A DNA stretch of 64,000 bases from a virus (Duplodnaviria; Heunggongvirae; Uroviricota; Caudoviricetes): positions 43,413 to 107,412 of the IMG/VR virus record IMGVR_UViG_3300048854_000273. One strand, 5' to 3'. The translations under genes and the position numbers were made by a program. The notes below the pieces were generated by a model. It did no database searches and was not told where the DNA came from. It saw only the letters and a list, made by a program, of their open reading frames with translations. Positions 14,545 to 50,462 of this stretch are shown in pieces (the first letter of the stretch is position 1; each line of letters begins with the position of its first letter).

Positions 14545-14805
14545 TTACCAGCTCCCCTCACACCCTGTGGGTTCGTCCAGCCCCGGATCGAGGTATCTGA
14601 TCAGGCTGAAGTCGAATGGCTCGAACCCTGTGCCGATGATCATCTCGTCTGTCCAGTCTCGGTTCTCCAGTCCAGTGCCCCTGCGAAAGTCTCGGTCCCT
14701 TACCCAGCCTTCTGCCCAGTCCTTCCCTCTGCGGCTCCACTGGATCTCGAACCACTCAGCATTCTTGCGGCCGGTAACGCGGATCTTCACTGTGTTGCCC
14801 ATCAC
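14545..14805 (-). CDS. hypothetical protein (86 aa), C-terminus ...CEGSW
   Basis: ORF; ATGA overlap with the upstream gene. Confidence 0.45.
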   Translation of the reverse strand: MMGNTVKIRVTGRKNAEWFEIQWSRRGKDWAEGWVRDRDFRRGTGLENRDWTDEMIIGTGFEPFDFSLIRYLDPGLDEPTGCEGSW

Positions 14806-15047
14806 CAGGTCTCGCCGGCTGACTGCGGAATGTCCTTCGCGCCTGACTTGATCAATACGGCTCGGGAGACGTCGCTCATCCGGTGCCGGGTTCGACCTTC
14901 CATACTGTCGTCGCGGGAGCCTACGCGGACGTGGAATCCCTCGATCCGCATTTCTTCGCCTTCGGTGGTGTCGGGGTCGCCGTCGTATGCCATGACGATG
15001 TATTCGTCCTCGTTGCTGTCGTAACCGATGATCTCGATTGTTGCCAT
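14802..15047 (-). CDS. hypothetical acidic protein (81 aa), C-terminus ...AGETW
   Basis: ORF. Confidence 0.45.
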   Translation of the reverse strand: MATIEIIGYDSNEDEYIVMAYDGDPDTTEGEEMRIEGFHVRVGSRDDSMEGRTRHRMSDVSRAVLIKSGAKDIPQSAGETW

Positions 15048-15392
15048 TGGATTGCTCTCGCTATGTGTTGTCTGATTCTCTCGCGCGACTCATGGAATGT
15101 CTTCGGGGACCGGGATGGCTTCGACGCGTTTAAAGACGTTTTGAGCGGTCGGGCTCTTTAGATGCGCAGAGTCACGTCGAGCGTCTTTGTCGCGGTTTCT
15201 GACGCGTTCTAGACGGTTCCTGACGTGCTTTGTCTTGTTCGGTTCAGTGCTGCGATGCTTACTCAACCGGGCGTTGAGGTAGCTTATACATCGGGGCGGG
15301 TTGGCCTTATAGGGCGAGCCACGGTTTGTTGTTTACATTCAAAGACTTAGATCGTGCGGCCTAGGGCTCACGCCTTGGACGGCTAATTCAAC

Positions 15393-15415
15393 AAAAAGGC
15401 GCCATTTCTGGCGCC
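15393..15415 (-). terminator. rho-independent terminator GGCGCCA-tttc-TGGCGCC plus U5 (minus strand) after mazF
   Basis: perfect 7-bp stem; A5 on the plus strand precedes the stem. Confidence 0.6.
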
Positions 15416-15422
15416 CTTCGAA

Positions 15423-15761
15423 TCACAGATCGAGGATCATTTTCACCGCAAATTTAGCGGCATCAAGTTCTTCCTCTGTAGCCCGCTCCCCGTTGAACTT
15501 GAACTCCCTCGCCTTGAAGGAAAGCGTGGTTATCTGGTCGACAAGGGCAACGCCTGGACGTGCGAGACTGGACAGCGGAATCTCCGTCTCCCACCCGCGC
15601 ACCGTGGAGGTGATTGGCAGCCCAATGATCCGGCCGGTCAGTTCGTTTATGTCCTGCGGACTGAGCACTACAACGGCTCGATACCCGTCCTGTTCGTTAC
15701 CCTTGCTCGGCCCGATGTAGAGCCGAATAATGTCGCCAGCTTCCGGTATTCCGTTTTGCAT
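15423..15761 (-). CDS. mazF: MazF/PemK-family endoribonuclease toxin
   Basis: GDIIRLYIGPSKGNEQDGYRAVVVLSP...GVALVDQITTLSFKAR aligns with E. coli MazF (DLIWVDFDPTKGSEQAGHRPAVVLSP...GVALADQVKSIAWRAR). Confidence 0.8.
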   Translation of the reverse strand: MQNGIPEAGDIIRLYIGPSKGNEQDGYRAVVVLSPQDINELTGRIIGLPITSTVRGWETEIPLSSLARPGVALVDQITTLSFKAREFKFNGERATEEELDAAKFAVKMILDL

Positions 15762-15767
15762 TCGTAT

Positions 15768-16055
15768 TTACCATTTGTCGAATCGCGTTGGATCGTCGGA
15801 ACCCCCGAGTTCCGAACCCTGCGGCTCGCCAAAGTCGATCGTCTCATGCGGCACAAGCTGGCGATCACGGAGCTGCTGCAAATACCGCTCGCGTGAGAAC
15901 CTCCTAATTGCCTTGTGCGGACGGATCAATACCTTCCCGTCCTGCACTTCGACGTCTACCTCCTGACCCTCCGAGAACGCCACCTCACCGGCGACGCTCG
16001 CGGGAATCCGAACCGCAAGGCTATTACCCCAACGCTTCAGGGTTTGAATAGCCAT
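15768..16055 (-). CDS. mazE: MazE-type antitoxin (AbrB/SpoVT fold)
   Basis: MAIQTLKRWGNSLAVRIPASVA vs E. coli MazE VKRWGNSPAVRIPATLM; C-terminus DFGEPQ...RFDKW vs DWGEPKDKEVW. Confidence 0.75.
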   Translation of the reverse strand: MAIQTLKRWGNSLAVRIPASVAGEVAFSEGQEVDVEVQDGKVLIRPHKAIRRFSRERYLQQLRDRQLVPHETIDFGEPQGSELGGSDDPTRFDKW

Positions 16056-16166
16056 CAAACTCTCTCCATCAGTGACGCGACCGGGAGGAGCCCGGTTCCC
16101 CTTCGTCTTCGATCCCTCAGCACACACGTAAGGAAGCTACGTGTCATTTTTTTATGTTTATACATC

Positions 16167-16222
16167 GTTGATACAAGACCGATCATATACTTCGTTCGCA
16201 GGCGTGTCAACGTTGTATCAAC
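16167..16222 (-). promoter_or_regulatory. AT-rich mazEF promoter/operator region with inverted repeat GTTGATACAA ... TTGTATCAAC
   Basis: 10-bp arms at 16167-16176 and 16213-16222, upstream of mazE. Confidence 0.45.
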
Positions 16223-16281
16223 ATTGCCCAGGCGCCACCCTTCCCCTAGGCTACCACTGTATATCCATACAGCCCTAAGCC

Positions 16282-16558: not shown

Positions 16559-16828
16559 CTACCACGTGCCGGCGTCCGGGTATCCAGCCGGCAACTCGAT
16601 CCTCTGCCTGGCGGTCGTGTAGAGCGCGTCAGCGACAGTCGAGCGGATTGCCGCGGATTCGCCATCCAGCTCCGCACAGACAAACCGCCGGGTTGCATAC
16701 AGGGACAGCTCCCTGCCTTCGCTGTCGAGCCATGCATTGAAGCGGTCGATCATTTCGTCGGTGATCCCGTCGAACTCGTCCATCACCAGCTCCCCAGGTC
16801 CGGGTAGCGCGGCGGGCGGGGCGGGCAC
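16559..16828 (-). CDS. hypothetical protein, C-terminus ...YPDAGTW
   Basis: ORF; C-terminal tail paralogous to the next gene. Confidence 0.4.
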   Translation of the reverse strand: MPAPPAALPGPGELVMDEFDGITDEMIDRFNAWLDSEGRELSLYATRRFVCAELDGESAAIRSTVADALYTTARQRIELPAGYPDAGTW

Positions 16829-17001
16829 AGCGACGACATGAGGCTGTAGGCCACGTTGTCGATCATCACGTAGCTCTCGCCTTCCATCTGCCTGCGCACA
16901 TAGTCGCGGGCCGCATCCATCACGTTTGCCCGTAGGTGGCGCCGGCGATGCTGCTCATAGCCATCGATCATGCTTTCGGCGATTTCCTCCCATTCAGTCA
17001 T
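16783..17001 (-). CDS. hypothetical protein, C-terminus ...YPDLGSW
   Basis: ORF. Confidence 0.45.
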   Translation of the reverse strand: MTEWEEIAESMIDGYEQHRRRHLRANVMDAARDYVRRQMEGESYVMIDNVAYSLMSSLCPPRPPRYPDLGSW

Positions 17002-20346: not shown

Positions 20347-20688
20347 TTACCAGCGCACACCCGTCGGCGTGCTGGGTTTGTCACCACCCACAACCGCAAC
20401 CGCCTCCGGGGTAAGCAGGCTCGGCGCCACGCGCCACTTTGCCGTCTCAAGCTGATTGCCGTCCGGGCCAATCTCGGTGCAGTTGGCGGTTTTGACGTTG
20501 ATCTTGTCCACGACCACCATCACCTTGCGGCCGTTGCGATTCACGAACCAGGCCTTGCCACCGATCCGCAGCCGTGAGCCCGCCTCCATCTGCTTCTGGG
20601 ACTGGCGGTAGCGCAACACGGACACGATGTGGGTATTCATGTCGCGAAGGGTTTCGGTCGAGAGGGCGTTGAGTTTCGAAAGATCCAT
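20347..20688 (-). CDS. hypothetical protein (start taken at MDLSKLNAL)
   Basis: ORF; direct repeat CCGGCTGTCA x2 at 20723-20746 upstream. Confidence 0.45.
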   Translation of the reverse strand: MDLSKLNALSTETLRDMNTHIVSVLRYRQSQKQMEAGSRLRIGGKAWFVNRNGRKVMVVVDKINVKTANCTEIGPDGNQLETAKWRVAPSLLTPEAVAVVGGDKPSTPTGVRW

Positions 20689-22303: not shown

Positions 22304-23218
22304 TTACTGCAGCCCGATCGCCTTTCGGTAGGCGATCAGATCGAGGGGTTTGCGGCCAACGTCCTTGGCCTTCTCGTAGCGCAGGTCCGGGTTCTTGAGC
22401 CACGCCTCGACGACGCCCAGGACCACGTCACGGATTTTCTTCTGTGACGTGCCGTTACCCCAGCCGTCCTGCTTCATCACCAGCAGCCACTGCGCGAGCC
22501 CTTCGACCGCGTCATAGCCGCTCTCGCCCTTGGTGCCGCGGCCCTCGACGAACGCTCGCCAGAACCCAAGCACCGGCTCGCCATGCTTGCGATACGTGAT
22601 CAGGAAGATGGACGTAACCGGGTTGATAAACTGCGTGCGCTTCACGTCCAGCTCGTCCAGCGCCATTAGCTCCGTCGCCCAGAAGCCTGCGCGCTCACCT
22701 CGGTCGGTGATGGCCGCGGGTGTGATCGGCGTGAGTGCGGCCGAGAACCGCATGTCCTTGCAGTAGCTGGACTGGAACTCGAGCCCGAGCATGCGGCACG
22801 CGCCATAGACCTTGTCCGTTACAGTCTCCACAGCTGCCGCGCTGTCGTAGAACGAGTAGAGGGTGCGGGCGTGGGCCAGGTTCTCCACTTTGTGGACCGT
22901 GACTAGCAGCTTGTCTGGTGCCGGCGCGCGTCCCTCACGCCAGAGCAGATCGCGGCTGTGGCCGTTGATCTTGACGAGCGATCCGTCCGGCAGGCGTGCG
23001 GCGTGGACCTCGCGGTGCGGCGAAGCGTAGGTCTGCATGTGCCTCTCGATCCGACCTGCATGCTTCTCTGTGTCACGCTGGACGTCGATCGCCGCGACGG
23101 TTGCCCATTCGGCGGGCGTCATCAGCAGGATTTCCAGATCCTCGGGGATCGCATTACTGTGGAGTTTTACGCCAGCCGACGTCGGCTGCACTGAAACTAG
23201 GGTGTGCTTAATGTTCAT
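22304..23218 (-). CDS. hypothetical protein (304 aa)
   Basis: ORF with coding-like composition. Confidence 0.5.
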   Translation of the reverse strand: MNIKHTLVSVQPTSAGVKLHSNAIPEDLEILLMTPAEWATVAAIDVQRDTEKHAGRIERHMQTYASPHREVHAARLPDGSLVKINGHSRDLLWREGRAPAPDKLLVTVHKVENLAHARTLYSFYDSAAAVETVTDKVYGACRMLGLEFQSSYCKDMRFSAALTPITPAAITDRGERAGFWATELMALDELDVKRTQFINPVTSIFLITYRKHGEPVLGFWRAFVEGRGTKGESGYDAVEGLAQWLLVMKQDGWGNGTSQKKIRDVVLGVVEAWLKNPDLRYEKAKDVGRKPLDLIAYRKAIGLQ

Positions 23219-23431: not shown

Positions 23432-23620
23432 TTATCCTTCCGACTTCATGTGGCCGTTCTCGATCAGCCACTCTTCAATGTCGCCCTCCGCCGTCGAACA
23501 GGCGCGCCGATAGGAGGCGAACGAGTCGTCTCCAAAGCGGCGCGTGTGCATCAGATTGCTCTTGAGCCGCTTCAGGAGCTCGACGGCGCTTTTTTTGAGT
23601 TCGTCGTCCGGCATCACCAA
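23432..23620 (-). CDS. small hypothetical protein
   Basis: ORF. Confidence 0.4.
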   Translation of the reverse strand: MVMPDDELKKSAVELLKRLKSNLMHTRRFGDDSFASYRRACSTAEGDIEEWLIENGHMKSEG

Positions 23621-24063
23621 GCTCCTACATCGTCGTCCACTTCAGTGGTCGGCCGGTTCGGGTCATCCGGCACCGCCGGCACCAAGACGTTGCCCTCCTC
23701 GACCAGCTCCTCCTCGCCGGTGACGCCGTTCGTCTCCATGTGGCTTTCGGTCCAGTCGACGAGGAACTTCTCGTATGCCTTCAGCGCTTCGCTCTCTTCC
23801 GAGAACGTCTTGCCGTGCATGATCGGGTCTTCACGCGTGACGCCTGAGCTGTCGTAGTTCCAGACACTGATCATGAAAAGTGCCCACGTGTCGCGCCACG
23901 AATTAGTCGGGTCCGTGACACGGCCAGTCCATTCCAGCGTCACGCGCACGCTGCCGTTGTCGAACTCCTTGAGCATCGTGTAGGCCGCGTCTGCACGCTT
24001 TGCCTTCCACAGATCCTTCGAAATCGCGTCGCCTTCGCGATCGTAGTAGCCAATCTTTGCCAT
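23614..24063 (-). CDS. hypothetical protein, C-terminus ...DDDVGAW
   Basis: ORF. Confidence 0.45.
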   Translation of the reverse strand: MAKIGYYDREGDAISKDLWKAKRADAAYTMLKEFDNGSVRVTLEWTGRVTDPTNSWRDTWALFMISVWNYDSSGVTREDPIMHGKTFSEESEALKAYEKFLVDWTESHMETNGVTGEEELVEEGNVLVPAVPDDPNRPTTEVDDDVGAW

Positions 24064-25859: not shown

Positions 25860-26369
25860 TCAGCCAGCATCGATCCTGTGGACGAAGTCGTGCAGATCGC
25901 CAAAGGCGAATTGCAGTGAATCAGGCAGGCTCTCGTCCTGCGACAGCTCCTCGATTGCAAGACACAGAGCTTGGCGCGTGCTGACGCCACCGAATGAGCG
26001 GGTCATCATGTGATGTGACGTATGCTTCGTGGTGCGCTTGGCAATTTTTCGGGCAAGGCTGCGCAGCTCTCCCGTTTTCGGCAGCTTCTCCAGCTTCTCG
26101 CACTCGAACAGATAAAGCGGCTCGCCCCAGACCTCGCCCACCTCACCGTGGTTGTAGACCATGCGGGTGAAGTGATCGCCCTTCAGCCCCATCACGACGT
26201 CGCAGGCCATCGAATAGGCGTGCTTGTCGAGCGTGAGCTTGAGGACGGTTTTGTCGTTGTCGAATACAGCCGAAAATGCACCGCGCGCCATGACCTTTTT
26301 ACCGATGATTGCTTCGTGTTGGCGGGCAGCCTTGACGCCCGCATCGCTCAAACGTAGAGCCTTAAACAT
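25860..26369 (-). CDS. hypothetical protein (169 aa)
   Basis: GGAGGTG RBS; motif 27 nt upstream. Confidence 0.5.
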   Translation of the reverse strand: MFKALRLSDAGVKAARQHEAIIGKKVMARGAFSAVFDNDKTVLKLTLDKHAYSMACDVVMGLKGDHFTRMVYNHGEVGEVWGEPLYLFECEKLEKLPKTGELRSLARKIAKRTTKHTSHHMMTRSFGGVSTRQALCLAIEELSQDESLPDSLQFAFGDLHDFVHRIDAG

Positions 26370-26396
26370 TGCACCTCCAGAACGACTTGCTTAGAT

Positions 26397-26410
26397 AGTC
26401 AATTGTGACT
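26397..26410 (+). promoter_or_regulatory. motif AGTCAATTGTGACT
   Basis: 27 nt upstream of ATG 26369. Confidence 0.55.
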
Positions 26411-26429
26411 GTCTGAGTCTGGATAGTAT

Positions 26430-26443
26430 AGTCAGTTTTTACT
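26430..26443 (+). promoter_or_regulatory. motif AGTCAGTTTTTACT
   Basis: second copy in the same divergent region. Confidence 0.55.
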
Positions 26444-26581
26444 ATCATTAAACACGGTTTTTCGCGCGCCGTTGCTCTGCTGCGACTACTGACGTCAACC
26501 GCTTGATGTGGCGGGCTTAGAACGCGCTATGATCGCGCTCCAGAGACCGTGAAATTATCAAAACAGAGCATCGGGGAAAAT

Positions 26582-26959
26582 ATGAGAAAGATCGCTTTGG
26601 CAATGGCATTGCTGACTAGTGCTGCGACGGCGAGCGCTACGGATTGGACACTCCTAGGTAGGAGCGACAACAGCGTTCTCTACGTCGCGATGGACAAGCT
26701 CGAATATCGAGGCAACACGGTCGTATTTTGGGACAAGCAGATATATGGAAAACCCGTAACTATCGGCCCTTACACGTATCTATATTCAGTCGCAAAGGAA
26801 GAACTTTCATGCACCGAGAGTAAATTTCGGTCCCTGACGACTTCCATCTATTCGGCGGCTGGCGAAGTTCAGAGCACGTTTAATACAACCAACTGGTTCG
26901 ACATTCCGCCAGACACAATGATGGAAAAGGTTGCCACTACCCTGTGTCGGCCACAGTAA
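26582..26959 (+). CDS. secreted protein (signal peptide), paralog A, low GC
   Basis: MRKIALAMALLTSAATASATDWTLL... Confidence 0.55.
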   Translation: MRKIALAMALLTSAATASATDWTLLGRSDNSVLYVAMDKLEYRGNTVVFWDKQIYGKPVTIGPYTYLYSVAKEELSCTESKFRSLTTSIYSAAGEVQSTFNTTNWFDIPPDTMMEKVATTLCRPQ

Positions 26960-26970
26960 GGAGGGGGGTG

Positions 26971-27354
26971 ATGAAAAGGCAAGCTCTCGGGCTAGCGTTG
27001 CTTGGCTTTGTTGGGTTCGCCCATGCGACCGACTGGATGCTTTATGCCAAGACCGACAATGTGTCGGTATTCGTGGCCGCCGATCGAATTACTCGCGAAG
27101 ACAAATACGCGGAAACATGGCAAAAATGGGTCTTTAATAAGCCGCAAAGCTATAACGGCAAGGCCTACAACTATTCCATAGAGCAAGTCAGCGTCTACTG
27201 TGACGCGGCTGGCTACTCAACTCGCGTTCATGCCGTGACTACCTATAAAACGAAAGGGCAGCCCGTCGCTTCTGCTACTGCGGCTGGCGAATGGACAACA
27301 GTGATCCCGGATTCCATCGGCGAGGCGGTGGCTATGGCTATCTGCAAGCAATAA
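26971..27354 (+). CDS. secreted protein (signal peptide), paralog B, low GC
   Basis: MKRQALGLALLGFVGFAHATDWMLY...; AAGGAGGGGGG RBS. Confidence 0.55.
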   Translation: MKRQALGLALLGFVGFAHATDWMLYAKTDNVSVFVAADRITREDKYAETWQKWVFNKPQSYNGKAYNYSIEQVSVYCDAAGYSTRVHAVTTYKTKGQPVASATAAGEWTTVIPDSIGEAVAMAICKQ

Positions 27355-27383
27355 AAAAGAAGGGCGACTCATCGTTCGCCCTT
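27353..27383 (+). terminator. hairpin GGGCGA..TCGCCC with A-run before and TTT after (bidirectional-type)
   Basis: read directly after the paralog pair. Confidence 0.5.
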
Positions 27384-27420
27384 TAAACACACGCCGTCTT
27401 GCGACAGCGTCCAGCTTTCT

Positions 27421-27618
27421 TCACTTCGGCAGACAGACCGCCTTGACGCGAGGAATATGGAGTAGGCCTTCCTCTTTTGCCTGCTCGATGATCGCGTTGC
27501 GCGCTTCCTGCCCCGCCTTCATACACGTCAGGAAAGACCCGAATTCTTGCATCTTGGTCGTTGAACGAATGTCGGGCGTCAAACATAGCACGGTCAGAAT
27601 CAGGACGTAGGCTTGCAT
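27421..27618 (-). CDS. small hypothetical protein (start taken at MQAYVLIL)
   Basis: ORF. Confidence 0.35.
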   Translation of the reverse strand: MQAYVLILTVLCLTPDIRSTTKMQEFGSFLTCMKAGQEARNAIIEQAKEEGLLHIPRVKAVCLPK

Positions 27619-30977: not shown

Positions 30978-31366
30978 GCCGCCACCGCTTTCGCTTTCGC
31001 GATTTCTGCCTGCAACTTCAGGACGTAATCCTTCACCTGACCGCCGTCGTGCTCCTCTTTCTGCCCCAAGTTCAGCAGATAGGCGCCTTCCGGCAGCTCG
31101 CGTCGATTGACGAGATCCTGGAATGCGATGCTCGGTCGGATCAGGCCGGTGATCGCGGACAACTCGTCTTGCAGCTCCTTCGCCTCCAGCTCCGACAGAT
31201 CACCCTGCACGAAGCGACCCACTTGCTTGAGCGATTCCTGTCCACGACCCGCGACCGCGAGATACAGGCCTTCCTTCTTGTGGACCTTGCGCAGCAACGC
31301 CTCGACGTCATCGATCTGCACCTGTAAAGCCTTGACCACCTTCGTTTCGATCAGCAACGTTGCCAT
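30974..31366 (-). CDS. hypothetical protein (start at MATLLIETK with AAGGAG RBS)
   Basis: ORF; 30-bp perfect inverted repeat containing the motif lies 43 nt upstream. Confidence 0.5.
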   Translation of the reverse strand: MATLLIETKVVKALQVQIDDVEALLRKVHKKEGLYLAVAGRGQESLKQVGRFVQGDLSELEAKELQDELSAITGLIRPSIAFQDLVNRRELPEGAYLLNLGQKEEHDGGQVKDYVLKLQAEIAKAKAVAA

Positions 31367-31400
31367 CGATTTCTCCTTCAACGGGTTGAACACTTAAACT

Positions 31401-31430
31401 AGATACATAGTCAGTTTTGACTATGTATCT
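31401..31430 (+). promoter_or_regulatory. motif AGTCAGTTTTGACT (31409-31422) embedded in a 13-bp-arm perfect inverted repeat AGATACATAGTCA/TGACTATGTATCT
   Basis: read directly; 43 nt upstream of ATG 31366. Confidence 0.65.
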
Positions 31431-31462
31431 ATGTTAAAAGCTCAACACTGGAATGTGTTCGG

Positions 31463-32290
31463 CTACTTGATGTTCAGCATCGTGTTGCCACTCTGGCCGA
31501 TCACCATCGTGCAATGCTCGTTCGAGGCACACGACTGCAACGCGAGGTTGTATTCGTGCTGAAGGAATGCGGGCGTCAACGTTTTCTGGAGCTGGTCGTT
31601 GGCATTCGCCTGGCCCTCTGCGCGAATCTTGGCGATCTCGGCGTCCTTGTGCGCGACCTGGGCCTGGTTTTCCTTCTGCGCCAGTTGCTGCTGGGCGAGC
31701 ACGGTCTGCTGGATAGCCTGGTCGATGGTCGGGTCCGTCTGGATCTTTCGCACGACCACGCGAGTGACAACGAAGGTGCCCTTCACGGATGGATCGGCAT
31801 CGAGCGCGGCCTGTGTGGCGGCCTTAATATCGACTTCCAGATCGGCGCGCTTCTGGTTCAGGTCCAGGCTGTCGAACTTGGGCACCGCGTCGTAGATCGC
31901 CGCTTTGGCAAGGTTGGACACGAGGTTGTAGCCGGGTCGATAAAAGTTCTCGCCCTCGATGCCGATCGACTGGCCCGCGTGGGTCGACACATATTTCGCC
32001 ACGGTGCCGGGAACGGCGCGGTAATAGACCGTGACTTCCAGATCCTTCAGCAAGAGCTTGTCCTTCGCGCGCGGCATCAGGTCGTTCAGGTCGATGGACG
32101 TTTCCTTGACCGTGTAGTGGTCGACGTGACTGAACACCGCGACGTAGACGCCCTGACCTTCTTCCTGCTGGCTGACGTCGCCCATCGTGGTGCGCACGCC
32201 GACTTCGCCCGTGTTGATCACGCCACCGCAACCCGAGAGGCCCATCGTCAGTGCCAGCGCCGTGATGGCGCCGAGAAGCAATCGTTTCAT
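31463..32290 (-). CDS. SPFH/band-7 (HflC/prohibitin-like) domain lipoprotein
   Basis: MKRLLLGAITALALTMGLSGCGG lipobox; band-7 core then Gln/Ala-rich coiled coil. Confidence 0.65.
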   Translation of the reverse strand: MKRLLLGAITALALTMGLSGCGGVINTGEVGVRTTMGDVSQQEEGQGVYVAVFSHVDHYTVKETSIDLNDLMPRAKDKLLLKDLEVTVYYRAVPGTVAKYVSTHAGQSIGIEGENFYRPGYNLVSNLAKAAIYDAVPKFDSLDLNQKRADLEVDIKAATQAALDADPSVKGTFVVTRVVVRKIQTDPTIDQAIQQTVLAQQQLAQKENQAQVAHKDAEIAKIRAEGQANANDQLQKTLTPAFLQHEYNLALQSCASNEHCTMVIGQSGNTMLNIK

Positions 32291-33310: not shown

Positions 33311-33750
33311 TGAATTACCACTCCATTGTCCATTGCTGCCTTGATGTTTTCCTCGTAGGCCACGCGCTCGAATGCCTTCTTCATGGCCTTGAGTTGCGTG
33401 AGCGTCGGCTTCACCTTTGCGTTGTGATAGGCGATGCCGTCTAGCCAAGAGCGCAAACGCTTCTCGTCCATTGCGTCGCGGATTCGCGGCGTCATCTTGA
33501 CGAGTTGCAGCCCGTAGCTGCGGCCAACTTCACGCCCATCGGCGCGCCGGAATCGCATTTCCCGGTTGTAATCCGTCTTGCCAATGATCTGCGTGCTCGT
33601 CAGGCGCTCCACCGTGAACAATGTATAGTCGGCATTGCCCGTGATGACCGCGCCCTGTCCCGGTTGCAGTGAGCGCAGCCAAAGGTTGTATTCGCTGCGC
33701 TCTCGCTCCTGTCTTTCGAAATAAGTTTCTTCCATCACCAGCTCCCCCAT
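33307..33750 (-). CDS. hypothetical protein (147 aa)
   Basis: ORF. Confidence 0.45.
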   Translation of the reverse strand: MGELVMEETYFERQERERSEYNLWLRSLQPGQGAVITGNADYTLFTVERLTSTQIIGKTDYNREMRFRRADGREVGRSYGLQLVKMTPRIRDAMDEKRLRSWLDGIAYHNAKVKPTLTQLKAMKKAFERVAYEENIKAAMDNGVVIQ

Positions 33751-34379
33751 CCGTTATCGGTCAGCACTTCCGTGCGTTGCGCGTCCATGCGCTCCTGCTC
33801 GGTCTTCGCGAATTCGGCATCGTCGCGCTCCTTGCGGTGCTCGGGCGTCTCGTTCAGCACCATGTTCGCGGGCTGGAAGTTACCCACAAAGCTCGGGTAA
33901 TAGTCGTCGGTGTTGGAGGTGCCGAACTCGATCACGGTCTTGCCCGTCACCTCATCCACCAGCTCAACGAGGTCGCTTTTGTAATACCCCGCCTCTCCCC
34001 TCCTGCCAGTCACTTTCACCGGCAAGAAGCGGTTCGTGATCTTGGTGCCCTTCGTCAGAGCCAGTCTGTTCAGCGAGGATCTATAGCCATCGCTCGGGTC
34101 TTCGATCGCCGTGTAGCAGTTGCCGTTCAGCACAAACGAGAAGTGGGTGGACTCCTCGCCGGACCCGTAACTAGTCTTCAGACGGACCTGTTCCTGCCCC
34201 ACGCCCGTCAGCTCGAACGTCTTGCCGACAAACCAGTCCAGATCCACCTCGCCTGTGTCTTCGCCCGAGAACGCCGACCGGACTTCGACCTCGTCGTCGA
34301 CCTCCTGCAGCAGTTCAGGTAGTTTCACCTCCGTCAACGTCAGCTTCTTTCCCATTTCCTCATCCATATCGCGCGGCAT
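33735..34379 (-). CDS. hypothetical acidic protein (214 aa), C-terminus ...DNGWGSW
   Basis: ORF. Confidence 0.45.
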   Translation of the reverse strand: MPRDMDEEMGKKLTLTEVKLPELLQEVDDEVEVRSAFSGEDTGEVDLDWFVGKTFELTGVGQEQVRLKTSYGSGEESTHFSFVLNGNCYTAIEDPSDGYRSSLNRLALTKGTKITNRFLPVKVTGRRGEAGYYKSDLVELVDEVTGKTVIEFGTSNTDDYYPSFVGNFQPANMVLNETPEHRKERDDAEFAKTEQERMDAQRTEVLTDNGWGSW

Positions 34380-34391: not shown

Positions 34392-34814
34392 TCAAAATGG
34401 AGTCAGATCGTCCTCGTCGTTGACGAGCACTGAGTTCGCCGCGTAGACAGCCTTGAACGCTCTGCAAGCAGCCCCGCACGCACGTCCAAACCTGCCAAGT
34501 CGCATCGCTAGCGCTATCTGCCGACGGCGAGCCCATCGCACGATTGCGTAGCTCGAAAGCTGATACTCAATCCATGCAATGGTGTCCTCGTATTCGATGC
34601 CTCCCAAACCTCGCGGCAATTCGCCGGCCCAGATGATCGTGGCCGGGAAAGTGTCTTTCGTGTAGTGGACGAGCAGCGAGCCATCCGTCAGCGTGAAGTC
34701 CCAGGAGCCGTTGATGACGTGCCCGGTGATCTCGCGCCCTTTGACGTTTCGCACTTCACACAACAGGCTGACGTTCTTACCCTTGCCGATCGCGAAGTAG
34801 TCGCCGCGAATCAT
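34392..34814 (-). CDS. hypothetical protein (140 aa)
   Basis: ORF. Confidence 0.45.
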   Translation of the reverse strand: MIRGDYFAIGKGKNVSLLCEVRNVKGREITGHVINGSWDFTLTDGSLLVHYTKDTFPATIIWAGELPRGLGGIEYEDTIAWIEYQLSSYAIVRWARRRQIALAMRLGRFGRACGAACRAFKAVYAANSVLVNDEDDLTPF

Positions 34815-39699: not shown

Positions 39700-40695
39700 T
39701 CAGTCTTCCCAGTCGTCAAGCGTGCCGACGGCGTAATCGCCCACTTTCGCTTCAAAAAAGTTGGACTCTTCGCCTTCGCTGAACTTCTTGAACCACGGCA
39801 CTGGCGACTTCACGCCAGGGAACAGTTCCGGCAACCCGATTTCGTGCGCGTGCTCGTTGGCCGTCGCCTGCAGAAAGCCCGTCACAATTGGCGCGGTGAG
39901 CCCCAGCATGCCCTTGCTGACGCTGTAGGCGCCCCACTTCGCTTCCAGGTCAACGGCGTCGCGCAGCAGGAACTCCGCGTCCCTCCAGAACTGTGCGTCG
40001 TAGAGCTCCGGTCGCTCCCGCCGGTTCGTCTGGTGCATCAGCTTGAACAGCTTCAGGTGGTTCCGCTCGTCCCGGTGAATCAGCTTCACACTGTCAGCGC
40101 TGCCAGTCATTTTTCCGTTACGTGCGAGTGCATAGAACACGAGGAACGCGCTGTAGAAGTAGATCCCCTCCAGAGCGACGTTTGCGACAAGTGAGCGCGC
40201 AAACTGCGCGGGCGTCTGTTCGCCGGCGAGGACGCGCGACTGCTTGAGGATATGTTCGTTCTTGGCCGCCAGCATGCCGTCGCGTTCAAAGCGCATGTAG
40301 ACCGCCATCGGATCAGCCGACACCGTCTCCACCATTTCGCTGTAGGCATCCACGTGCAGCGCCTCCTCGTAGCGCTGGCGCATGATGCACATTTCCACTT
40401 CTGGCGACGTGATGCACGACTCGATGTTCGCGAGGCTGTGGAGCTGGATGCCGTCGAGGTTGGAAGCGAACGACAGGGCGCTGTCGTAGGCGAAACGCTC
40501 ACCCTCGGTCAGGCGGGTGCGGTAGCAGGGGCCGTCCTCGGTCAGATCGGTCTCGTGGAGATCCCAATTGGCCGCCTTCATGGTCTTCCACATGTCGCGC
40601 GCCCACTTGTGCTTGGCGGGCGAGATCGCCATTAGATCCGATCTGGGTCCGAAAGCGAGCCGGCGGTCGTTAATAATCTGGGCGTGGTTACTCAT
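39700..40695 (-). CDS. nrdB: ribonucleotide reductase class I small subunit (R2/NrdB-like)
   Basis: ferritin-like di-iron motifs EEALHVDAYSE, VALEGIYFYSAF, IHRDERNH. Confidence 0.85.
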   Translation of the reverse strand: MSNHAQIINDRRLAFGPRSDLMAISPAKHKWARDMWKTMKAANWDLHETDLTEDGPCYRTRLTEGERFAYDSALSFASNLDGIQLHSLANIESCITSPEVEMCIMRQRYEEALHVDAYSEMVETVSADPMAVYMRFERDGMLAAKNEHILKQSRVLAGEQTPAQFARSLVANVALEGIYFYSAFLVFYALARNGKMTGSADSVKLIHRDERNHLKLFKLMHQTNRRERPELYDAQFWRDAEFLLRDAVDLEAKWGAYSVSKGMLGLTAPIVTGFLQATANEHAHEIGLPELFPGVKSPVPWFKKFSEGEESNFFEAKVGDYAVGTLDDWED

Positions 40696-43380: not shown

Positions 43381-43914
43381 TTACCAGGCGTCGCCGGCAG
43401 CAGTCACGGGCTGGTCGCGATTGATCGGTGATGTGCTGACGGGCGCAGGGGACGGCTGCGTCATGTATTGGCTCTGGAAGTCTTCCGGCGACAGATAGCG
43501 CATCGCGTCGGCATCGTGGTTGTGCCAGTCAGTCCAGTCATGGGGCCGGCCCGTCGAGGCGGGATTAGGCACGGCGATCATCTTGACCATGCCGTCCAGA
43601 CCCTTGACCTCTTTCCAGCGCAGCGTGGGCCGCTCCTCATGCGGGCAGGCTTTGGGCGTGGCACACGACGCGTCGAGCGTCGTTTCCATGGTCGCCATGG
43701 AGACATGACGGTCGAGCTTGATCTTGCCGCATTCAACGCAGTCGGCGCAGCCTGCACTGAGCAATGCATCGGCGACTCTCTGCATCTCGCGGCGCTCGCG
43801 CGCAAGGGCGGTTAATCCCAAGGTCTCAACTTGGCTGATCGGCATGCGAAAGCGCGTGTTTTTGAGCAGGGTCTTTTTGCGTTCAGCAATAGAATGATCG
43901 GCGAAGGCGCCCAT
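43381..43914 (-). CDS. hypothetical Cys-rich protein (177 aa)
   Basis: ORF; motif 39 nt upstream. Confidence 0.45.
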   Translation of the reverse strand: MGAFADHSIAERKKTLLKNTRFRMPISQVETLGLTALARERREMQRVADALLSAGCADCVECGKIKLDRHVSMATMETTLDASCATPKACPHEERPTLRWKEVKGLDGMVKMIAVPNPASTGRPHDWTDWHNHDADAMRYLSPEDFQSQYMTQPSPAPVSTSPINRDQPVTAAGDAW

Positions 43915-44572: not shown

Positions 44573-44811
44573 TTGTCCGCATACCCCCAAAGTTCATACA
44601 CTGCCGCGTTGTAGAGTTGCACCTGCCAACCGCGGCCCCGGTAAATGTCCACACCCAGCACCGTGCGGCGCGGGCGTCCTATGCCGACGAGGAAGGAGCG
44701 CTCAACCACGTTGATCGTTACGGCGCCGAACGGAGCCTCGACCAGCACGCATTCCTTGTCGTATTGCGAGGCCTTCCAACCTTCAGGGAGTTCGATCGGG
44801 AGCTTCACCAT
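44569..44811 (-). CDS. hypothetical protein (80 aa)
   Basis: ORF. Confidence 0.4.
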   Translation of the reverse strand: MVKLPIELPEGWKASQYDKECVLVEAPFGAVTINVVERSFLVGIGRPRRTVLGVDIYRGRGWQVQLYNAAVYELWGYADK

Positions 44812-45572
44812 GATCCAAACCCCTCGTATAGCTTCATTGCGCCGGCATTGCGCGCTATTTCGTTCTGCCGTGATGCCTGCGCGGCCAGCTCCTCCTTCTG
44901 CTCGAGGACGTCTTTCAACGTTTCACGCAAATAGGTCGTAAAGCCAGCCCCGAACACTTTCGCGCACTGCTTCTCCGGCACTTCGAGGTATTCGAAGTCG
45001 CTCGGATCGGTCGGCCTGAGCATGATTAGCGTCTGCCCTTTCTTGCCGATATACGCGCTCGATGGCCGGAAATCCTCACCGCCGATGAACGCGGTGTTCC
45101 GATATTCCTTGCCCTTCTTCGTGATCAGCTTCATCGGGGCGGTAAGACTGAACGCCTGCGGCGACTGGGCAAACGCATCGCCGTATTGCGCGACAAGGTC
45201 CGCGAGTTGCGCGTCCATGTCAGTGCCCGCTGGTGCTTCCATGTAGTCCTCCATCTGTTTTGGGGTGAGAGGGGTGTGGGTGTATTGCCGGATCGGATTT
45301 GCGATCGGCTTGGGCTTGCCGTATTTCGGCGGCTTACCCTGCTTGACCAGCAACTCGTCGACGTAGCCTTCATGGCCGCCACCGTGCCGACTCGCGTCCT
45401 CGCTGTTGTAGCCGGTGATCATGAGATCAGCCATCGACGACTTGCCAGCGCGCCGCGGTGTCAAGATCACCTTCTCAATGAGACGCCCCGACGTGTCGTA
45501 GCGGCTTGCGCCGGCGCTCTCGATCAGCTTTTCGAGAACACCAGGCGTCGAGTAGGGCAGCTTAGAAGCCAC
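44805..45572 (-). CDS. hypothetical protein (255 aa), C-terminus ...YEGFGSW
   Basis: ORF. Confidence 0.45.
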   Translation of the reverse strand: MASKLPYSTPGVLEKLIESAGASRYDTSGRLIEKVILTPRRAGKSSMADLMITGYNSEDASRHGGGHEGYVDELLVKQGKPPKYGKPKPIANPIRQYTHTPLTPKQMEDYMEAPAGTDMDAQLADLVAQYGDAFAQSPQAFSLTAPMKLITKKGKEYRNTAFIGGEDFRPSSAYIGKKGQTLIMLRPTDPSDFEYLEVPEKQCAKVFGAGFTTYLRETLKDVLEQKEELAAQASRQNEIARNAGAMKLYEGFGSW

Positions 45573-48582: not shown

Positions 48583-48596
48583 AGTCAGTTTTGACT
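48583..48596 (+). promoter_or_regulatory. motif AGTCAGTTTTGACT forming the whole spacer between the SleB-like stop and the sbcD RBS
   Basis: minus-sense read: TAG-TGTAGAT-AGTCAAAACTGACT-GGAGGAATC-ATG. Confidence 0.65.
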
Positions 48597-48603
48597 ATCT
48601 ACA

Positions 48604-49008
48604 CTATTTGAAAAAGACGTGGTTTCCTGTTGCGTAGACCCGCGTCATGTCCTTGTCCCACACCGGATGCACCCACTTCGTGTGGTAGTAGGTCGCACCC
48701 TGCGTAAAGTCCTGCGCCTTCCCCTTCAGGGTCACATACGCGACCGCGCGGGCCAGTCGCCATGCGTTCTCGTCGCGGGGCAGCGCCTGGTTCGTGATCG
48801 TCCAGCCGTGCTTGTGGCGTTTGACGAGGCCGTTTGTCCATGAGAACTGCTTGGGCGCCATTACTACTCCGCAAACCTTTTTCTGGTCGCCTTCTGCGCG
48901 GTTCATCGTCGTCATTGCGACCGCCAGTTGCCCGGCGACCGGTTCGCCGCGAGCTTCGTGGAAAACGTTTAGTGCGAGACACAGAAAGGCGCTTGCTAGT
49001 AGCATCAA
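48604..49008 (-). CDS. SleB-family cell-wall hydrolase (secreted)
   Basis: signal peptide then ALNVFHEARGEPVAGQLAVAMTTMNR and YYHTKWVHPVW, typical of SleB/Hydrolase_2. Confidence 0.6.
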   Translation of the reverse strand: MMLLASAFLCLALNVFHEARGEPVAGQLAVAMTTMNRAEGDQKKVCGVVMAPKQFSWTNGLVKRHKHGWTITNQALPRDENAWRLARAVAYVTLKGKAQDFTQGATYYHTKWVHPVWDKDMTRVYATGNHVFFK

Positions 49009-49049
49009 AACTCCATCAATTCACTCACAATTGTCATTATACAATCATC

Positions 49050-49063
49050 AGTCAGGGATGACT
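49050..49063 (+). promoter_or_regulatory. motif spacer variant AGTCAGGGATGACT
   Basis: half-sites kept, spacer changed; 41 nt upstream of the SleB-like ATG. Confidence 0.5.
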
Positions 49064-49064
49064 G

Positions 49065-49445
49065 TTATTTCAGTTTCATCGCCGAAGCGATTCCCTTCGT
49101 TGTCTTGCCAGGATTGTGGCGAAAACGAATCAGCGGAAGTCCTCTTTGTCGCGTGTCGCCCCAGTGAGGAAACGAATGAGGATCATCAAAGAAATCTTCA
49201 ACAAGTGTGAGATACAACCTCCACGACTTACCGGTCGTTTTGACGCCGATATACTTGATCCCCTTCAGCCGGCATTCTTCGAGCGTCGCCACGTCGATGC
49301 ACCACGCATTCATCTTGTGGTAAATCTCGCGCGACTTTCGTGAAGCGATGTAGCAGGCGCGGCCACTGTCGAGGTAGTGCCACCACCCATAAAATTTGCC
49401 ATTGCGACTGTGGATGTAGCGGTTCGTCATCAGAAGCCGCCCCAC
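49065..49445 (-). CDS. hypothetical protein (126 aa)
   Basis: ORF. Confidence 0.4.
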   Translation of the reverse strand: MGRLLMTNRYIHSRNGKFYGWWHYLDSGRACYIASRKSREIYHKMNAWCIDVATLEECRLKGIKYIGVKTTGKSWRLYLTLVEDFFDDPHSFPHWGDTRQRGLPLIRFRHNPGKTTKGIASAMKLK

Positions 49446-49762
49446 TCGCCATACTGCTCGGTCTTGTGGACGTCCTCGAGTTCCTCCTCTACCTGCCGGA
49501 GGGTTGCCTCAACACGCTCCTGCCGGCGCGCGCGCTTCGCTGCCTTGCCGACCAGCCTGTCGCGGCGCTTCGTCGCGCCCTTCTCACGCTGCTCCGGTTG
49601 CTCGATATCCTTCTGACCGCCCTTTCCATTGAGCATTCGACCATATCCGGCTTCATAGAAATCCCAACCAGCCCACTCAGATGCCGGAGCCTTCATTGCA
49701 GCGTCCCGCTCACCGCTGATTCGATCCCAGCGATTCCGTTCACGTGAATAGTCTTGACGCAT
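49430..49762 (-). CDS. hypothetical basic protein, C-terminus ...YGEWGGF
   Basis: ORF. Confidence 0.4.
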   Translation of the reverse strand: MRQDYSRERNRWDRISGERDAAMKAPASEWAGWDFYEAGYGRMLNGKGGQKDIEQPEQREKGATKRRDRLVGKAAKRARRQERVEATLRQVEEELEDVHKTEQYGEWGGF

Positions 49763-50121
49763 CAGAACGCTCCCCAGCCCGAATCACTGTAGAGCGCCTC
49801 GCGCTGTGCTTGCTCTTGTTCACGTGCGCGTTTCTCGGCACGCTTCTCTGCGGTGTATTCGTCCGGCAGCAGGTAGGAATAGCGCTCAAGCTCGGGCAGG
49901 TCGATGATCTTGTCGAGAATCGCCGTCATCAGAGGCGCCGAAAAGTTGACGCGGACAGGTCGTTGCGGGTGGTCCGCCACTTCCTTATCGAGCAGCCACA
50001 CGAGGTAGCCGGGCTGCTTTTCCAGCAGATAGGCGACATCCCTTCCCTTGTTCTTGCCGAACGGCACGAAGGAGTCGAGATCGAGGTTGTAGGTCGCGAA
50101 CTTGGTCAAAACGCACCCCAC
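49762..50121 (-). CDS. DUF3820-like (ExoX C-terminal-type KGxxL..YLxWL) protein, C-terminus ...SGWGAF
   Basis: FGKNKGRDVAYLLEKQPGYLVWLL. Confidence 0.5.
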   Translation of the reverse strand: MGCVLTKFATYNLDLDSFVPFGKNKGRDVAYLLEKQPGYLVWLLDKEVADHPQRPVRVNFSAPLMTAILDKIIDLPELERYSYLLPDEYTAEKRAEKRAREQEQAQREALYSDSGWGAF

Positions 50122-50462
50122 TCGCTACCGTAGCCGGCGAATGCGACGGTTGTGGCCTGGGCCATGACCGCTTCGGTAACGACCGCGGCTTCCTCGATCT
50201 GGATCTTGGCTTCGCGCTTCATGGCGGCAAAGTCAGGCGGCGTCTTCGTCCAGTTGCGATACCGGCCGCTACCGTCCTTCTGCACCCAGCGGTCAAGCGC
50301 ATCATTCACGTCCTGATCGAAGAACGCCTGCCGCTTGGTTTTGAGCGTCTCGTCGCGTAGCCAACAAAGGTAGCCAGGCTCGACCGTAATCAGCCGCCCG
50401 ATCTCCTTGTCTTTGTGCTTGCCGAAGTTCAGCTTGTCGCTGCGGCCATTCCCTTCATTCAT
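50106..50462 (-). CDS. DUF3820-like protein (tandem paralog), C-terminus ...SEWGAF
   Basis: FGKHKDKEIGRLITVEPGYLCWL. Confidence 0.5.
   Translation of the reverse strand: MNEGNGRSDKLNFGKHKDKEIGRLITVEPGYLCWLRDETLKTKRQAFFDQDVNDALDRWVQKDGSGRYRNWTKTPPDFAAMKREAKIQIEEAAVVTEAVMAQATTVAFAGYGSEWGAF

Follow-up and report, generated by a model that had tools for sequence, protein, structure and literature searches.

Small proteins encoded on the minus strand of a phage-plasmid share a short C-terminal peptide, although their bodies differ. The four-residue tail, an aromatic residue followed by Gly, any residue and Trp or Phe, ends at least seven of these unrelated proteins and is kept in hundreds of distant relatives. 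The genes are listed in Table 1 by their positions in the window, the whole 64,000-nucleotide stretch of DNA that was analysed. Eleven of them had been named in the original prediction, and the coordinates of all 11 stops and tail peptides read back exactly; two more Trp ends (..TGVRW and ..AGDAW) were absent from it. The reference member, at 44805, lies directly after an SbcC-like gene and two genes before a RuvC-like resolvase gene, from which it is separated by the 80-aa g44569.

Table 1. Genes of the window that end in Trp or in the Phe form of the tail.
Position	Strand	Length (aa)	C-terminal end	Tail as read back	Remarks
14545..14805	-	86	..TGCEGSW	CEGSW	Probable gene; last of minus-strand run; stop TAA, no overlap
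14802..15047	-	81	..SAGETW	AGETW	Terminal Trp only; does not fit phi-G-x-W
15768..16055	-	95	..RFDKW	RFDKW	MazE antitoxin, from ATG at 16055; then MazF, 15423-15761
16559..16783	-	74	..PAGYPDAGTW	DAGTW	Stop TAG, no overlapping downstream gene
16783..17001	-	72	..PPRYPDLGSW	DLGSW	Paralogue of 16559-16783
20347..20688	-	113	..TPTGVRW		Absent from original prediction
23614..24063	-	149	..PNRPTTEVDDDVGAW	DVGAW	Globular body with disordered, conserved acidic tail
33735..34379	-	214	..VLTDNGWGSW	GWGSW	Tail codons double as next gene's Shine-Dalgarno (SD) and start
43381..43914	-	177	..PVTAAGDAW		Between RuvC-like gene and nrdA; absent from original prediction
44805..45572	-	255	..KLYEGFGSW	GFGSW	Reference member of the tail class
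49430..49636	-	68	..TEQYGEWGGF	WGGF	Gene 3 of tandem trio
49762..50109	-	115	..LYSDSGWGAF	WGAF	Gene 2 of tandem trio
50106..50462	-	118	..GYGSEWGAF	WGAF	Gene 1 of tandem trio downstream of RecA

Excess of terminal Trp and Phe

An independent gene call placed 102 genes in the window, with Trp making up 1.36% of residues. Ten genes end in Trp where 1.38 would be expected (binomial P=1.5e-6), an excess stronger than the eight against about one first reported, and nine end in Phe (3.6 expected, P=0.01). The bias is sharpest for G-x-[WF], which ends 9 of the 102 genes against 0.39 predicted by how often the tripeptide occurs internally (P=3e-10). Neither the G-x-[WF] nor the Trp excess is present in the window's 846 non-gene open reading frames, where these ends occur 4 and 18 times, respectively.

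Several Trp-ending genes do not fit this pattern. The ends AGETW, TGVRW and AGDAW have only the terminal Trp in common and lack Gly at -2. Orthologues of 20347 end in ..AGDAW, ..IAAW or ..KATF, while the 43381 family forms a second tail class, P-x-T-x4-W-COOH: the genes at the same position in relatives end in PMTVADDAW, PMTTDDVW, PQTAADAW, PKTVDKDAW, PRTGGVAW and PRTKAFVW. Orthologue searches for 14802-15047 and for 14545-14805 found none, which makes the former at most a candidate member of the class; the latter has a weak coding score (+0.7), though every alternative frame, on either strand, scores far lower. The 15768 product is a true MazE, matching the E. coli MazE chains 1mvf_D and 1ub4_C (phmmer E~1e-10) and sharing an identical end with a Paraburkholderia plasmid MazE. 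Its terminal Trp is a trait of the MazE family, a separate known case outside the new class, and pooling it with the other tails was a mistake.

Tails and bodies among relatives

In 2775 unique genes from 126 related loci, 99 end in phi-G-x-[WF] against 3.9 expected and 157 end in Trp against 34, with per-locus counts being approximate because our own gene caller mis-called several high-GC loci. The carriers in these loci form 37 BLAST clusters of bodies and range from 59 to 383 aa. The tails can be summarised as [Y]-x(2-5)-[acidic/polar]-[W/F/Y, less often L/V/A]-G-[S/A/T]-[W/F]-COOH.

The 44805 family was followed through 155 cluster representatives (50% identity), using gene calls independent of this analysis. 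In 153 of the 155, [FWY]-[GA]-x-[WFY] is terminal or one residue short of the end: the motif is exactly terminal in 140 and is followed by one small residue in 13, and thus a free carboxylate on the Trp is not strictly required. FGSW is kept in orthologues whose bodies are 25-55% identical. One tail of this type reads ..YKDLGFGSW in context. Orthologues of 50106 end in WGAF, WGSW, WGTW, WGAW, WGSF, WGVF or WGSY, those of 49762 in WGEF, WGGF or WGAF, and those of 33735 in QWGSW, GWGTF, GWGSF or WGEF plus an extra A; the L001 orthologue of 49430 ends in ..QYGSNWGGF, and orthologues of 16559 in L074 and L080 end in LAGSW and MAGSW. The tip of the 23614 family is DDD[VI]GAW.

Tails also co-vary within genomes. 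Two tails from one genome, on BLAST-unrelated bodies, match at 1.26 of 3 positions, against 0.88 for tails from different genomes (permutation P~0.001, a test that takes no account of phylogeny or hidden paralogy), and lineages have their own sets, such as WGMF/WGLF/WGIF, FGRF/YGRF, FGVF/YGVF and AGIF/AGMF/AGMF/AGAF/VGAF.

All bodies had originally been described as unrelated, which holds for seven window families: with the tails trimmed, hhalign gives a probability below 1% for every pair. It does not hold for 16559/16783 (blastp 1.5e-6) and 49762/50106 (blastp 1.2e-7), which are paralogues, and the 11 proteins therefore represent about nine independent bodies. The 49430 body shows no detectable kinship to its neighbours 49762/50106, and hhalign stays below 1% against all other families. 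AlphaFold (AF2) predicts different folds for the two families modelled, an SH3/Tudor-like beta-barrel with a long helix for 44805 and a WGR-like alpha/beta domain for the other. In both, the tail is the most conserved segment, is modelled with pLDDT <50 and no secondary structure, and does not pack on the body. The tail is absent from every enzyme that can be recognised in the module (Pol III alpha, gp32-like SSB, FEN, RecA, SbcCD, RuvC-like and DnaQ-like exonuclease); the replisome is therefore not an obvious hub.

Overlap, descent, degradation or docking

It is highly improbable that the tail is a by-product of translational coupling, its last codons encoding the Shine-Dalgarno and start of the next gene (e.g. 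GGG AGC TGG TGA TG, with GGGAG, a six-base spacer and ATG). About six window genes do carry the next ribosome binding site and start in their tail codons: 16783 and 33735 both read GGG AGC TGG TGA TGG, 23614 reads GGA GCT TGG TGA TGC, 14802 GAG ACC TGG TGA TGG and 49762 GGA GCG TTC TGA TGC, while in 44805 (GGA TCA TGG TGA) the next ATG lies within the Ser-Trp codons. Coupling also clearly accounts for many ..A/..AA ends of the element (GCA TGA). However, 14545, 16559, 20347 and 43381 stop at TAA or TAG without an overlapping start, and of 95 tail genes in relatives 59% have a gap before the next gene and only 40% overlap its start. A Shine-Dalgarno would require GGA or GGG, yet the Gly codons are about equally used (GGG 28, GGA 25, GGT 21, GGC 21) and six Ser codons occur, including AGC 16, TCA 13, AGT 9 and TCG 5; nor would it require an aromatic at -3 or Trp/Phe at 0. 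Orthologues of 44805 in which TAA, a spacer and a separate Shine-Dalgarno precede the next gene still keep the tail (L002, L038, L040, L043 and SSU5_076, the last as ..TWATW). Coupling as the cause is contradicted by these non-overlapping orthologues, with bodies 25-50% identical, and by the free choice of codons. The overlap thus lets codons serve opportunistically for two purposes and does not explain the tail, on which selection operates at the level of the peptide rather than of the DNA. Descent offers another explanation without a common partner: tandem duplication from one or a few ancestors, with bodies diverged past recognition and the tail kept for each protein's own folding or self-association. 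The tandem arrays of the window (49430-50462, 16559-17001 and 14545-15047), four tail genes in a row in L110 and three in L006, and a weak alignment of the charged helix and tail of 33735 with those of 49762 (E=0.03) suit it, and together with the two detectable paralogous pairs the arrays mean that some tail sharing may reflect descent, not independent acquisition. As a general account it is nonetheless unlikely, given the profile comparisons, the spread of carrier lengths, the two distinct folds and the unpacked tails, and even if true it would require strong selection on the tail alone.

The tail could instead be a C-terminal degron. A protease or adaptor of host or phage origin (Lon, ClpXP/ClpAP, FtsH) would read the exposed aromatic end and limit the lifetime of the accessory proteins, in which case what they share is a protease instead of a functional hub. 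The original prediction had left the choice between docking peptide and degron, and apart from the MazE and the paralogous pairs its premise is sound: a selected, unstructured peptide on unrelated bodies, conserved whatever its nucleotide context and co-varying within genomes, is expected of either, and a protease receptor would explain the conservation and co-variation equally well. The position at the extreme C-terminus on a flexible linker and the small, possibly regulatory carriers also suit a degron, as does the presence among the Trp-ending neighbours of an antitoxin, a kind of protein known for proteolytic instability. However, the C-terminal degrons known from bacteria either resemble ssrA (-LAA/-AA) or are basic, as in MuA. 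No tail ends in AA, while such ends are plentiful on the element's other genes (228 against 32 expected), and an -AA signal was therefore already at hand. Lon's loose taste for exposed aromatics is also less specific than an almost invariant Gly with the aromatics at a set distance, which leaves a degron doubtful though conceivable.

The evidence leans towards docking: a short linear motif at the C-terminus, phi-G-[SAT]-[WF]-COOH, would bring diverse replication and recombination accessory proteins to one common partner, and the tail looks like a new docking peptide. The motif lies at the tip of flexible linkers or long helices, and the small accessory proteins that carry it, unrelated to one another, are encoded in the replication and recombination region of an SSU5/RHEph10-like phage-plasmid. 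Most likely the two aromatic side chains, with a Gly-containing turn between them and beside a free carboxylate, insert into a pocket of the partner, and in this way one hub would gather bodies as different as the SH3/Tudor-like barrel and the WGR-like domain. Candidate phage partners are the gp32-like SSB, RecA, SbcCD, the RuvC-like resolvase, NrdA, the CobS/CobT-like AAA+/VWA pair and the 44805-family barrel; a conserved host protein is the alternative.

Comparison with known C-terminal peptides

Through its tip, ..DDDIPF-COOH, E. coli SSB docks over a dozen proteins involved in genome maintenance. Like the tails, this tip joins an extreme C-terminal aromatic and free carboxylate to a disordered linker, with a conserved tip and a variable linker, and the 23614 tip and the end of the 34392 product, DEDDLTPF, are near it in sequence. 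The SSB-tail analogy does not extend to family membership, since most tails have neither a penultimate Pro nor an acidic run; SSB is also one carrier with many readers, whereas the carriers here are many and none is an OB-fold SSB.

In T7 and in T4, several different proteins end in a common short tail whose last aromatic residue is essential, and they are rivals for one hub. As judged from titles cited in PMC12339929, the acidic, Phe-ended tails of T7 gp2.5 and gp4 both bind T7 DNA polymerase and the C-terminal tails of T4 gp43, gp33 and gp55 bind the gp45 clamp. The likeness lies in short aromatic-ended tails on several phage proteins. The motif here is aromatic-Gly-small-aromatic and only moderately acidic, its carriers are uncharacterised accessory proteins rather than SSB, helicase or polymerase, and its hub is putative. 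The beta-clamp motif (QL[SD]LF, QLxLxL) is likewise often C-terminal, Phe-ended and common to unrelated proteins, and LGLF in the Pol II end QLGLF-COOH is spaced like WGAF. The tails nevertheless lack its Gln and penultimate Leu, with Trp their commonest last residue, and do not belong to the family of clamp-binding motifs to which the original prediction had likened them. The FEN and DnaQ-like nucleases of relatives carry a different near-terminal motif, F-x-[KL]-P-F, which is a better clamp-motif candidate.

NrdB (R2) docks to NrdA (R1) through a C-terminal peptide, and in this phage group NrdB ends in Y-x-x-G-G-x-L-[ED]-W(-D/E), a Tyr...Gly...Trp-COOH arrangement resembling the tails; the 43381 family, whose gene immediately precedes nrdA, likewise ends in Trp. 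The NrdB tail is found on a single enzyme subunit whose receptor is known, it is unlike phi-G-x-[WF] in spacing and residues, and NrdA is only a candidate receptor for the other tails. McdB carboxysome adaptors have highly divergent, partly disordered bodies whose sole invariant feature is a C-terminal Trp (PMC11321042), which Tyr or Phe can partly replace and which mediates docking to a common structure (PMC11321042). Divergent bodies with a conserved C-terminal aromatic are thus found in both cases, although McdB forms a single functional family that acts with a ParA-type ATPase and a microcompartment shell, whereas here many families occur in one phage genome outside any McdA or carboxysome context.

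Several GTPases and toxins recognise the tip of the eukaryotic and archaeal ribosomal stalk P-protein, ..DDDMGFGLFD. This tip comes from another domain of life and another carrier, and bacteria are not known to have such a stalk tip. In sequence the likeness appears striking, an acidic run being followed in both by a C-terminal [LM]-G-F-G-x-[FW], as in the tail ..YKDLGFGSW.

Terminal aromatic tails in the window

The window (64 kb, about 60% GC, nearly all genes on the minus strand) carries the features collected in the table; its genes are named here by their lower coordinate, which is the stop end. Within the DnaE-type Pol III alpha, residues 972-1070 form a uracil-DNA-glycosylase-superfamily domain (PF03167, E=3.6e-8), an unusual fusion. 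A gap of about 1 kb without a called gene has lower GC (0.54), and neither tRNA genes nor notable repeats were found in it.

Features of the window with their coordinates, strand and protein length
Feature	Coordinates	Strand	Length
CobT/CobS-like pair (VWA + AAA+)			
Sigma factor			
DnaE-type Pol III alpha with UDG-like C-terminal domain	55099-58464	-	1121 aa
FEN	52028-52930	-	
gp32-like SSB, RecA			
Tail carrier 50106	50106-50462	-	
SbcD and SbcC homologues, RuvC-like resolvase			
Tail carrier 44805, after the SbcC-like gene	44805-45572	-	255 aa
Small gene 43381, just upstream of nrdA	43381-43914	-	
NrdB	39700-40632	-	
NrdA, ThyX, DnaQ-like exonuclease			
Query protein of the AAA_28 profile	35981-36610		
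Gene 34392, SSB-like end	34392-34814	-	140 aa
Tail carrier 33735	33735-34379	-	
Gap without a called gene	26369-27421		
Protein used as a single query	22304-23218		
Trp-ending gene 20347	20347-20688	-	
MazE/MazF module	15423-16055	-	
MazE	15768-16055	-	

The original prediction listed small proteins ending in Trp or in WGGF/WGAF, with about one Trp end expected by chance. Each quoted tail was confirmed at its stop codon, and a gene call based on codon usage (100 genes, or 102 including MazE and ORF 14545) added two Trp-ending genes, 20347 (..TGVRW) and 43381 (..AGDAW). The estimate of about one was right: 10 of the 102 genes end in Trp against a computed expectation of 1.38 (P=1.5e-6). G-x-[WF] ends occur in nine genes versus 0.39 expected from the internal tripeptide frequency (P=3e-10), and [hydrophobic]-G-x-[WF] ends in eight versus 0.18. 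Chance or composition is rejected as the cause; non-gene ORFs of the window have no excess of G-x-[WF] ends (4/846). The motif is also present in loci of 42% to 67% GC. The statistical enrichment of C-terminal W and G-x-[WF] holds over the window's 102 genes, and the observation of recurrent tails is both confirmed and extended.

The SbcC-like protein shares 40-45% identity with its counterparts in Rhizobium phages RHph_Y2_11 and RHEph10, in Salmonella phage SSU5 and in comparable phages of about 110 kb. Among phage records, a 25-kb megablast query had no near-identical DNA. The 44805 protein is recorded on a metagenomic contig of 156.7 kb. The closest organism-named locus of the genome scan is a Paraburkholderia metagenome-assembled genome (77% amino acid identity), but two viral contigs are closer (L008, 90%; L009, 85%). 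Hosts among the organism-named loci include Paraburkholderia, Massilia, Magnetospirillum, Methylocystis, Faunimonas and Salmonella.

Selection on the peptide

In the window, the tail codons of several genes lie on a stop/start overlap: GGG AGC TGG TGA TGG in 16783 and 33735, GGA GCT TGG TGA TGC in 23614, GAG ACC TGG TGA TGG in 14802 and GGA GCG TTC TGA TGC in 49762. In 44805 (GGA TCA TGG TGA), the Ser-Trp codons contain the next ATG. The tail might accordingly be read as a translation signal, with G-[SA] encoding the Shine-Dalgarno (SD) sequence of the next gene and TGG TGA TG making a GTG-ATG start. The same logic accounts for many ..A ends of this element (GCA TGA), and it looked convincing while only the window was considered. 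However, 14545, 16559, 20347 and 43381 stop at TAA or TAG without an overlapping start, and the idea was therefore tested on relatives.

These relatives comprise 126 related loci, 39 viral and 7 genome contigs found via the SbcC homologue and 80 viral contigs found via the AAA_28 profile. The genome contigs include six related ones and a distant match, L007, which was left out of the statistics; the SSU5 region was taken from its annotation. Neither 22304-23218 nor 33735-34379, each used alone as a query protein in locus searches, matched any viral contig. Among 95 distinct tail genes in relatives, only 40% overlap the next start and 59% do not. Their Gly codons are used almost evenly (GGG 28, GGA 25, GGT 21, GGC 21), all six Ser codons occur in tails of relatives, and the tail is retained where TAA and a separate SD follow. 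Tails of orthologues without overlap, together with free codon choice, thus show that selection acts on the peptide, and SD/start overlap is rejected as its cause. The use of tail codons as an SD is opportunistic. Where phage genomes are compact, gene-end codons often serve also as the ribosome-binding site of the next gene, which calls for caution, but in the tail genes the conserved thing is the peptide rather than an RNA signal.

The reference member of the class, 44805 (..KLYEGFGSW), illustrates this conservation. Its orthologues have bodies that are 25-55% identical and end in FGSW, FGSF, YGSW, FGTW, FASW, YASW, WGMF, FGRF or YGRF; in many, TAA and a spacer come after the tail and before an SD of its own for the next gene. 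Examples are L002 (..YADFGSW TAA AAAGAAAGGAAGCAGATG), L038 (GGT AGC TGG TAA AAGGAAAGGAACATG; L040 and L043 likewise) and SSU5_076 (..TWATW TAA GGAGACCAAAAATG). A word-indexed homologue search with a 35-sequence profile returned only 7 close relatives. A family profile built from the window protein and six database homologues, searched against 1.84 billion cluster representatives, retrieved 295 proteins at E<=1e-3. We examined 155 sequences with independent gene calls, namely the 150 best-listed of the 295 plus the earlier database homologues. Of these, 140 end exactly in [FWY]-[GA]-x-[WFY], 13 carry a single additional A, S or G after the motif, and two lack it. The tail columns are F 79%, G 96%, S 71% and W 72%, with a Tyr 6-8 residues before the end and acidic or polar residues between. 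No part of the 35-sequence alignment is better conserved than the tail, the start Met and an invariant core Glu (E197) excepted.

Other families behave similarly. Orthologues of 33735 end in QWGSW, GWGTF or GWGSF, those of 16559 in LAGSW or MAGSW, and those of 20347 in GDAW or IAAW. Orthologues of the trio of tandem genes downstream of RecA (50106, 49762 and 49430) end in WGAF, WGEF, WGGF, WGSW, WGTW or WGSF. The 15 orthologues of 23614 (..VGVW, ..GEAW, ..CGAW, ..AGSW, ..FGSF and similar) keep the tail though the body alignment ends near residue 127.

The bodies were originally described as unrelated, which stands at the profile level, although blastp within the window detects two paralogue pairs, 16559/16783 and 49762/50106. 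When the last 14 residues were removed, hhalign found no homology between the 44805, trio, 49430, 23614, 33735, 16559 and 20347 families (probability <1% for each pair). Common ancestry of the bodies is rejected at this level of comparison. BLAST sorts the tail-bearing bodies of all loci into 37 clusters of 59-383 aa. The two families modelled with AlphaFold2 have different folds, resembling SH3/Tudor-like and WGR-like domains, and pLDDT is below 50 for the modelled tails. Peptides that fold upon binding a partner typically show this pairing of high conservation and low predicted order. In 50106, residues 8-39 weakly match an NCBIfam model for the C-terminal region of exodeoxyribonuclease X (E=0.0015, far below cutoff), probably by chance.

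Separate classes of C-terminal ends

MazE, whose ..RFDKW end was originally grouped with the tails, belongs to a separate class homologous to E. coli MazE. It matches MazE structures 1mvf_D and 1ub4_C over residues 4-82 (phmmer E~1e-10) and combines an AbrB/SpoVT-type N-terminal domain and a C-terminal Trp with a PemK/MazF gene directly 3'. At the DNA level, the module shares 76% identity with one from a megaplasmid of Paraburkholderia sp. PGU19, and the plasmid homologue of MazE also ends in RFDKW. Apart from a short ThyX stretch, this module is the only plasmid match within 14-39 kb, suggesting that the cassette was acquired recently and that the host belongs to the Burkholderiales.

Trp ends are also found around ribonucleotide reductase. 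NrdB orthologues end in Y-x-x-G-G-x-L-[ED]-W(-D/E), the R2 tail, and the 43381 family ends in P-x-T-x4-W. In some genomes (L084, L089, L029), the end of the nrdA-upstream gene resembles the local NrdB tail, as in the pairs KTGGALAW/RTGGVAW (L084) and ..DDEF/..DDDF (L029). This likeness hints that the product of this gene may compete for the R2-tail site on NrdA. We regard these ends as a class of their own that does not explain phi-G-x-[WF], and NrdA is not taken as the hub.

The 34392 protein ends in ..VNDEDDLTPF and its L050 orthologue (12101-12523) in ..DEDDLIPF, close copies of the bacterial SSB tip DDDIPF. It has no SSB domain match and may mimic host SSB or compete with it for SSB-binding proteins. 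FEN and DnaQ-like exonuclease orthologues have in common a near-C-terminal F/W-x-[KLA]-P-F. The window FEN ends in ..RAWTAPFRA, and in the SSU5 locus (L047) 8838-9782 and 31147-31704 end in ..FVLPFERYC and ..FFKLPFERS. This may be a clamp- or SSB-binding motif of the nucleases of this phage group.

Ala-Ala ends are enriched about seven-fold, with 228 versus 32 expected among the 2716 genes of the window and loci L001-L127; in 128 of the 228, no downstream start overlaps the end. Ala is the last residue of 21 of the 102 window genes, in many cases through a GCA TGA overlap. Almost all RuvC-like resolvase orthologues end in [KR]-x-A-A, resembling the ssrA-type ClpXP tag. Signals in C-terminal peptides seem to be used heavily in this lineage.

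Candidate readers and known docking tips

The tail is best described as a short linear motif at the C-terminus, phi-G-[SAT]-[WF]-COOH, by which diverse accessory proteins would dock to a putative shared partner. The proposal of a shared functional C-terminal peptide is supported in kind by conservation at the peptide level. The tail is carried by none of the core enzymes of the module, which makes the replisome a less obvious partner. As the tail of the 44805 family is nearly universal, presence/absence contrasts are uninformative for finding a hub, and unreliable gene calls in some loci limit the search by genomic association. Tails on BLAST-unrelated bodies agree at 1.26 of 3 variable positions within a genome versus 0.88 between genomes (permutation P~0.001), in a test that leaves phylogenetic structure and cryptic paralogy in the comparison; tail genes are often tandem. 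Lineage-specific sets include WGMF/WGLF/WGIF, FGRF/YGRF, FGVF/YGVF, AGIF/AGMF/AGMF/AGAF/VGAF and WGTW/WGAW. This likeness fits co-evolution with one receptor per lineage.

A degron, in which the tail is read by a protease, is possible; the ssrA-type C-degron (-LAA/-AA) is rejected, as the tails end in W or F and the AA ends form a separate abundant class. A bolder and rather doubtful extension of the docking reading is a private interaction code, in which one phage-encoded receptor would read aromatic-Gly-x-aromatic-COOH tips. Accessory genes would then reach the replication/recombination centre by gaining a four-residue tip, and receptor and tips (WG[MLI]F, [FY]GRF, AG[MI]F, FGSW) would co-evolve by lineage. 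In its concrete version, the universally present 44805 family would be both client and candidate receptor, its predicted small SH3/CAP-Gly-like barrel binding C-terminal aromatic tips, its own included.

Replisomes and repair machines are wired together by C-terminal docking tips, among them the SSB tip, clamp-binding motifs and the tails of T7 and T4 proteins; such tips are also targets for drugs and engineering. Here, the carriers form at least 36-37 clusters that are unrelated in sequence and whose proteins otherwise escape annotation, in a widespread group of phage-plasmids of about 110 kb. A single receptor, if it exists, would give dozens of 'hypothetical' proteins a cellular address at once and reveal a hub of phage DNA metabolism. 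Literature searches by motif strings and concepts turned up no description of the tail; it is a new tip with a clear consensus, of a known kind.

The analogies originally drawn, to clamp-binding and SSB-tail-binding peptides, are not borne out as family memberships by the sequence features. Position -1 (position 0 being the last residue) is S, A or T in about 70-90% of tails (S 71% and T 16% in the 44805 family; S 33%, A 24% and T 11% in the others), and Pro is not among its frequent residues. Between 47% and 72% of tails end in W. A penultimate Pro with a C-terminal Phe (DDDIPF type) occurs only in 34392. Acidic residues (D/E) account for about 25-37% at each position from -6 to -4, and a true DDD run before the tip is seen only in the 23614 family. 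Carriers have no Pfam match to SSB, gp32 or DUF2815, and the window's gp32-like SSB ends in ..LGDLEATGT. An SSB tip is therefore rejected, the tails lacking the penultimate Pro and having no OB-fold carrier; most also appear to lack a full acidic run. Positions -4/-5 hold mainly G, D, E, L, I and P, with Q outside the six commonest; the beta-clamp-binding motif (QL[SD]LF/QLxLxL) is rejected on sequence features, as the tails lack both the Gln and a penultimate Leu.

The tail also recalls the invariant C-terminal Trp of McdB adaptors (PMC11321042), a functional resemblance only. No ParA/McdA ATPase or microcompartment genes lie beside the carriers, whose context is SbcCD, RecA, RuvC-like and RNR genes. 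With T7 gp2.5 and gp4, the carriers share a C-terminal aromatic residue (here W or F) on an unstructured tail. In contrast to the strongly acidic T7 tails, which bind a basic patch on the polymerase of that phage, those described here are moderately acidic, and the polymerase is a DnaE-type Pol III alpha instead of a T7-type enzyme. Clients of the T4 clamp likewise have C-terminal docking tips. By analogy, the proposed mode of action would be like that of the SSB tip, the T7 gp2.5/gp4 tails and the T4 clamp clients.
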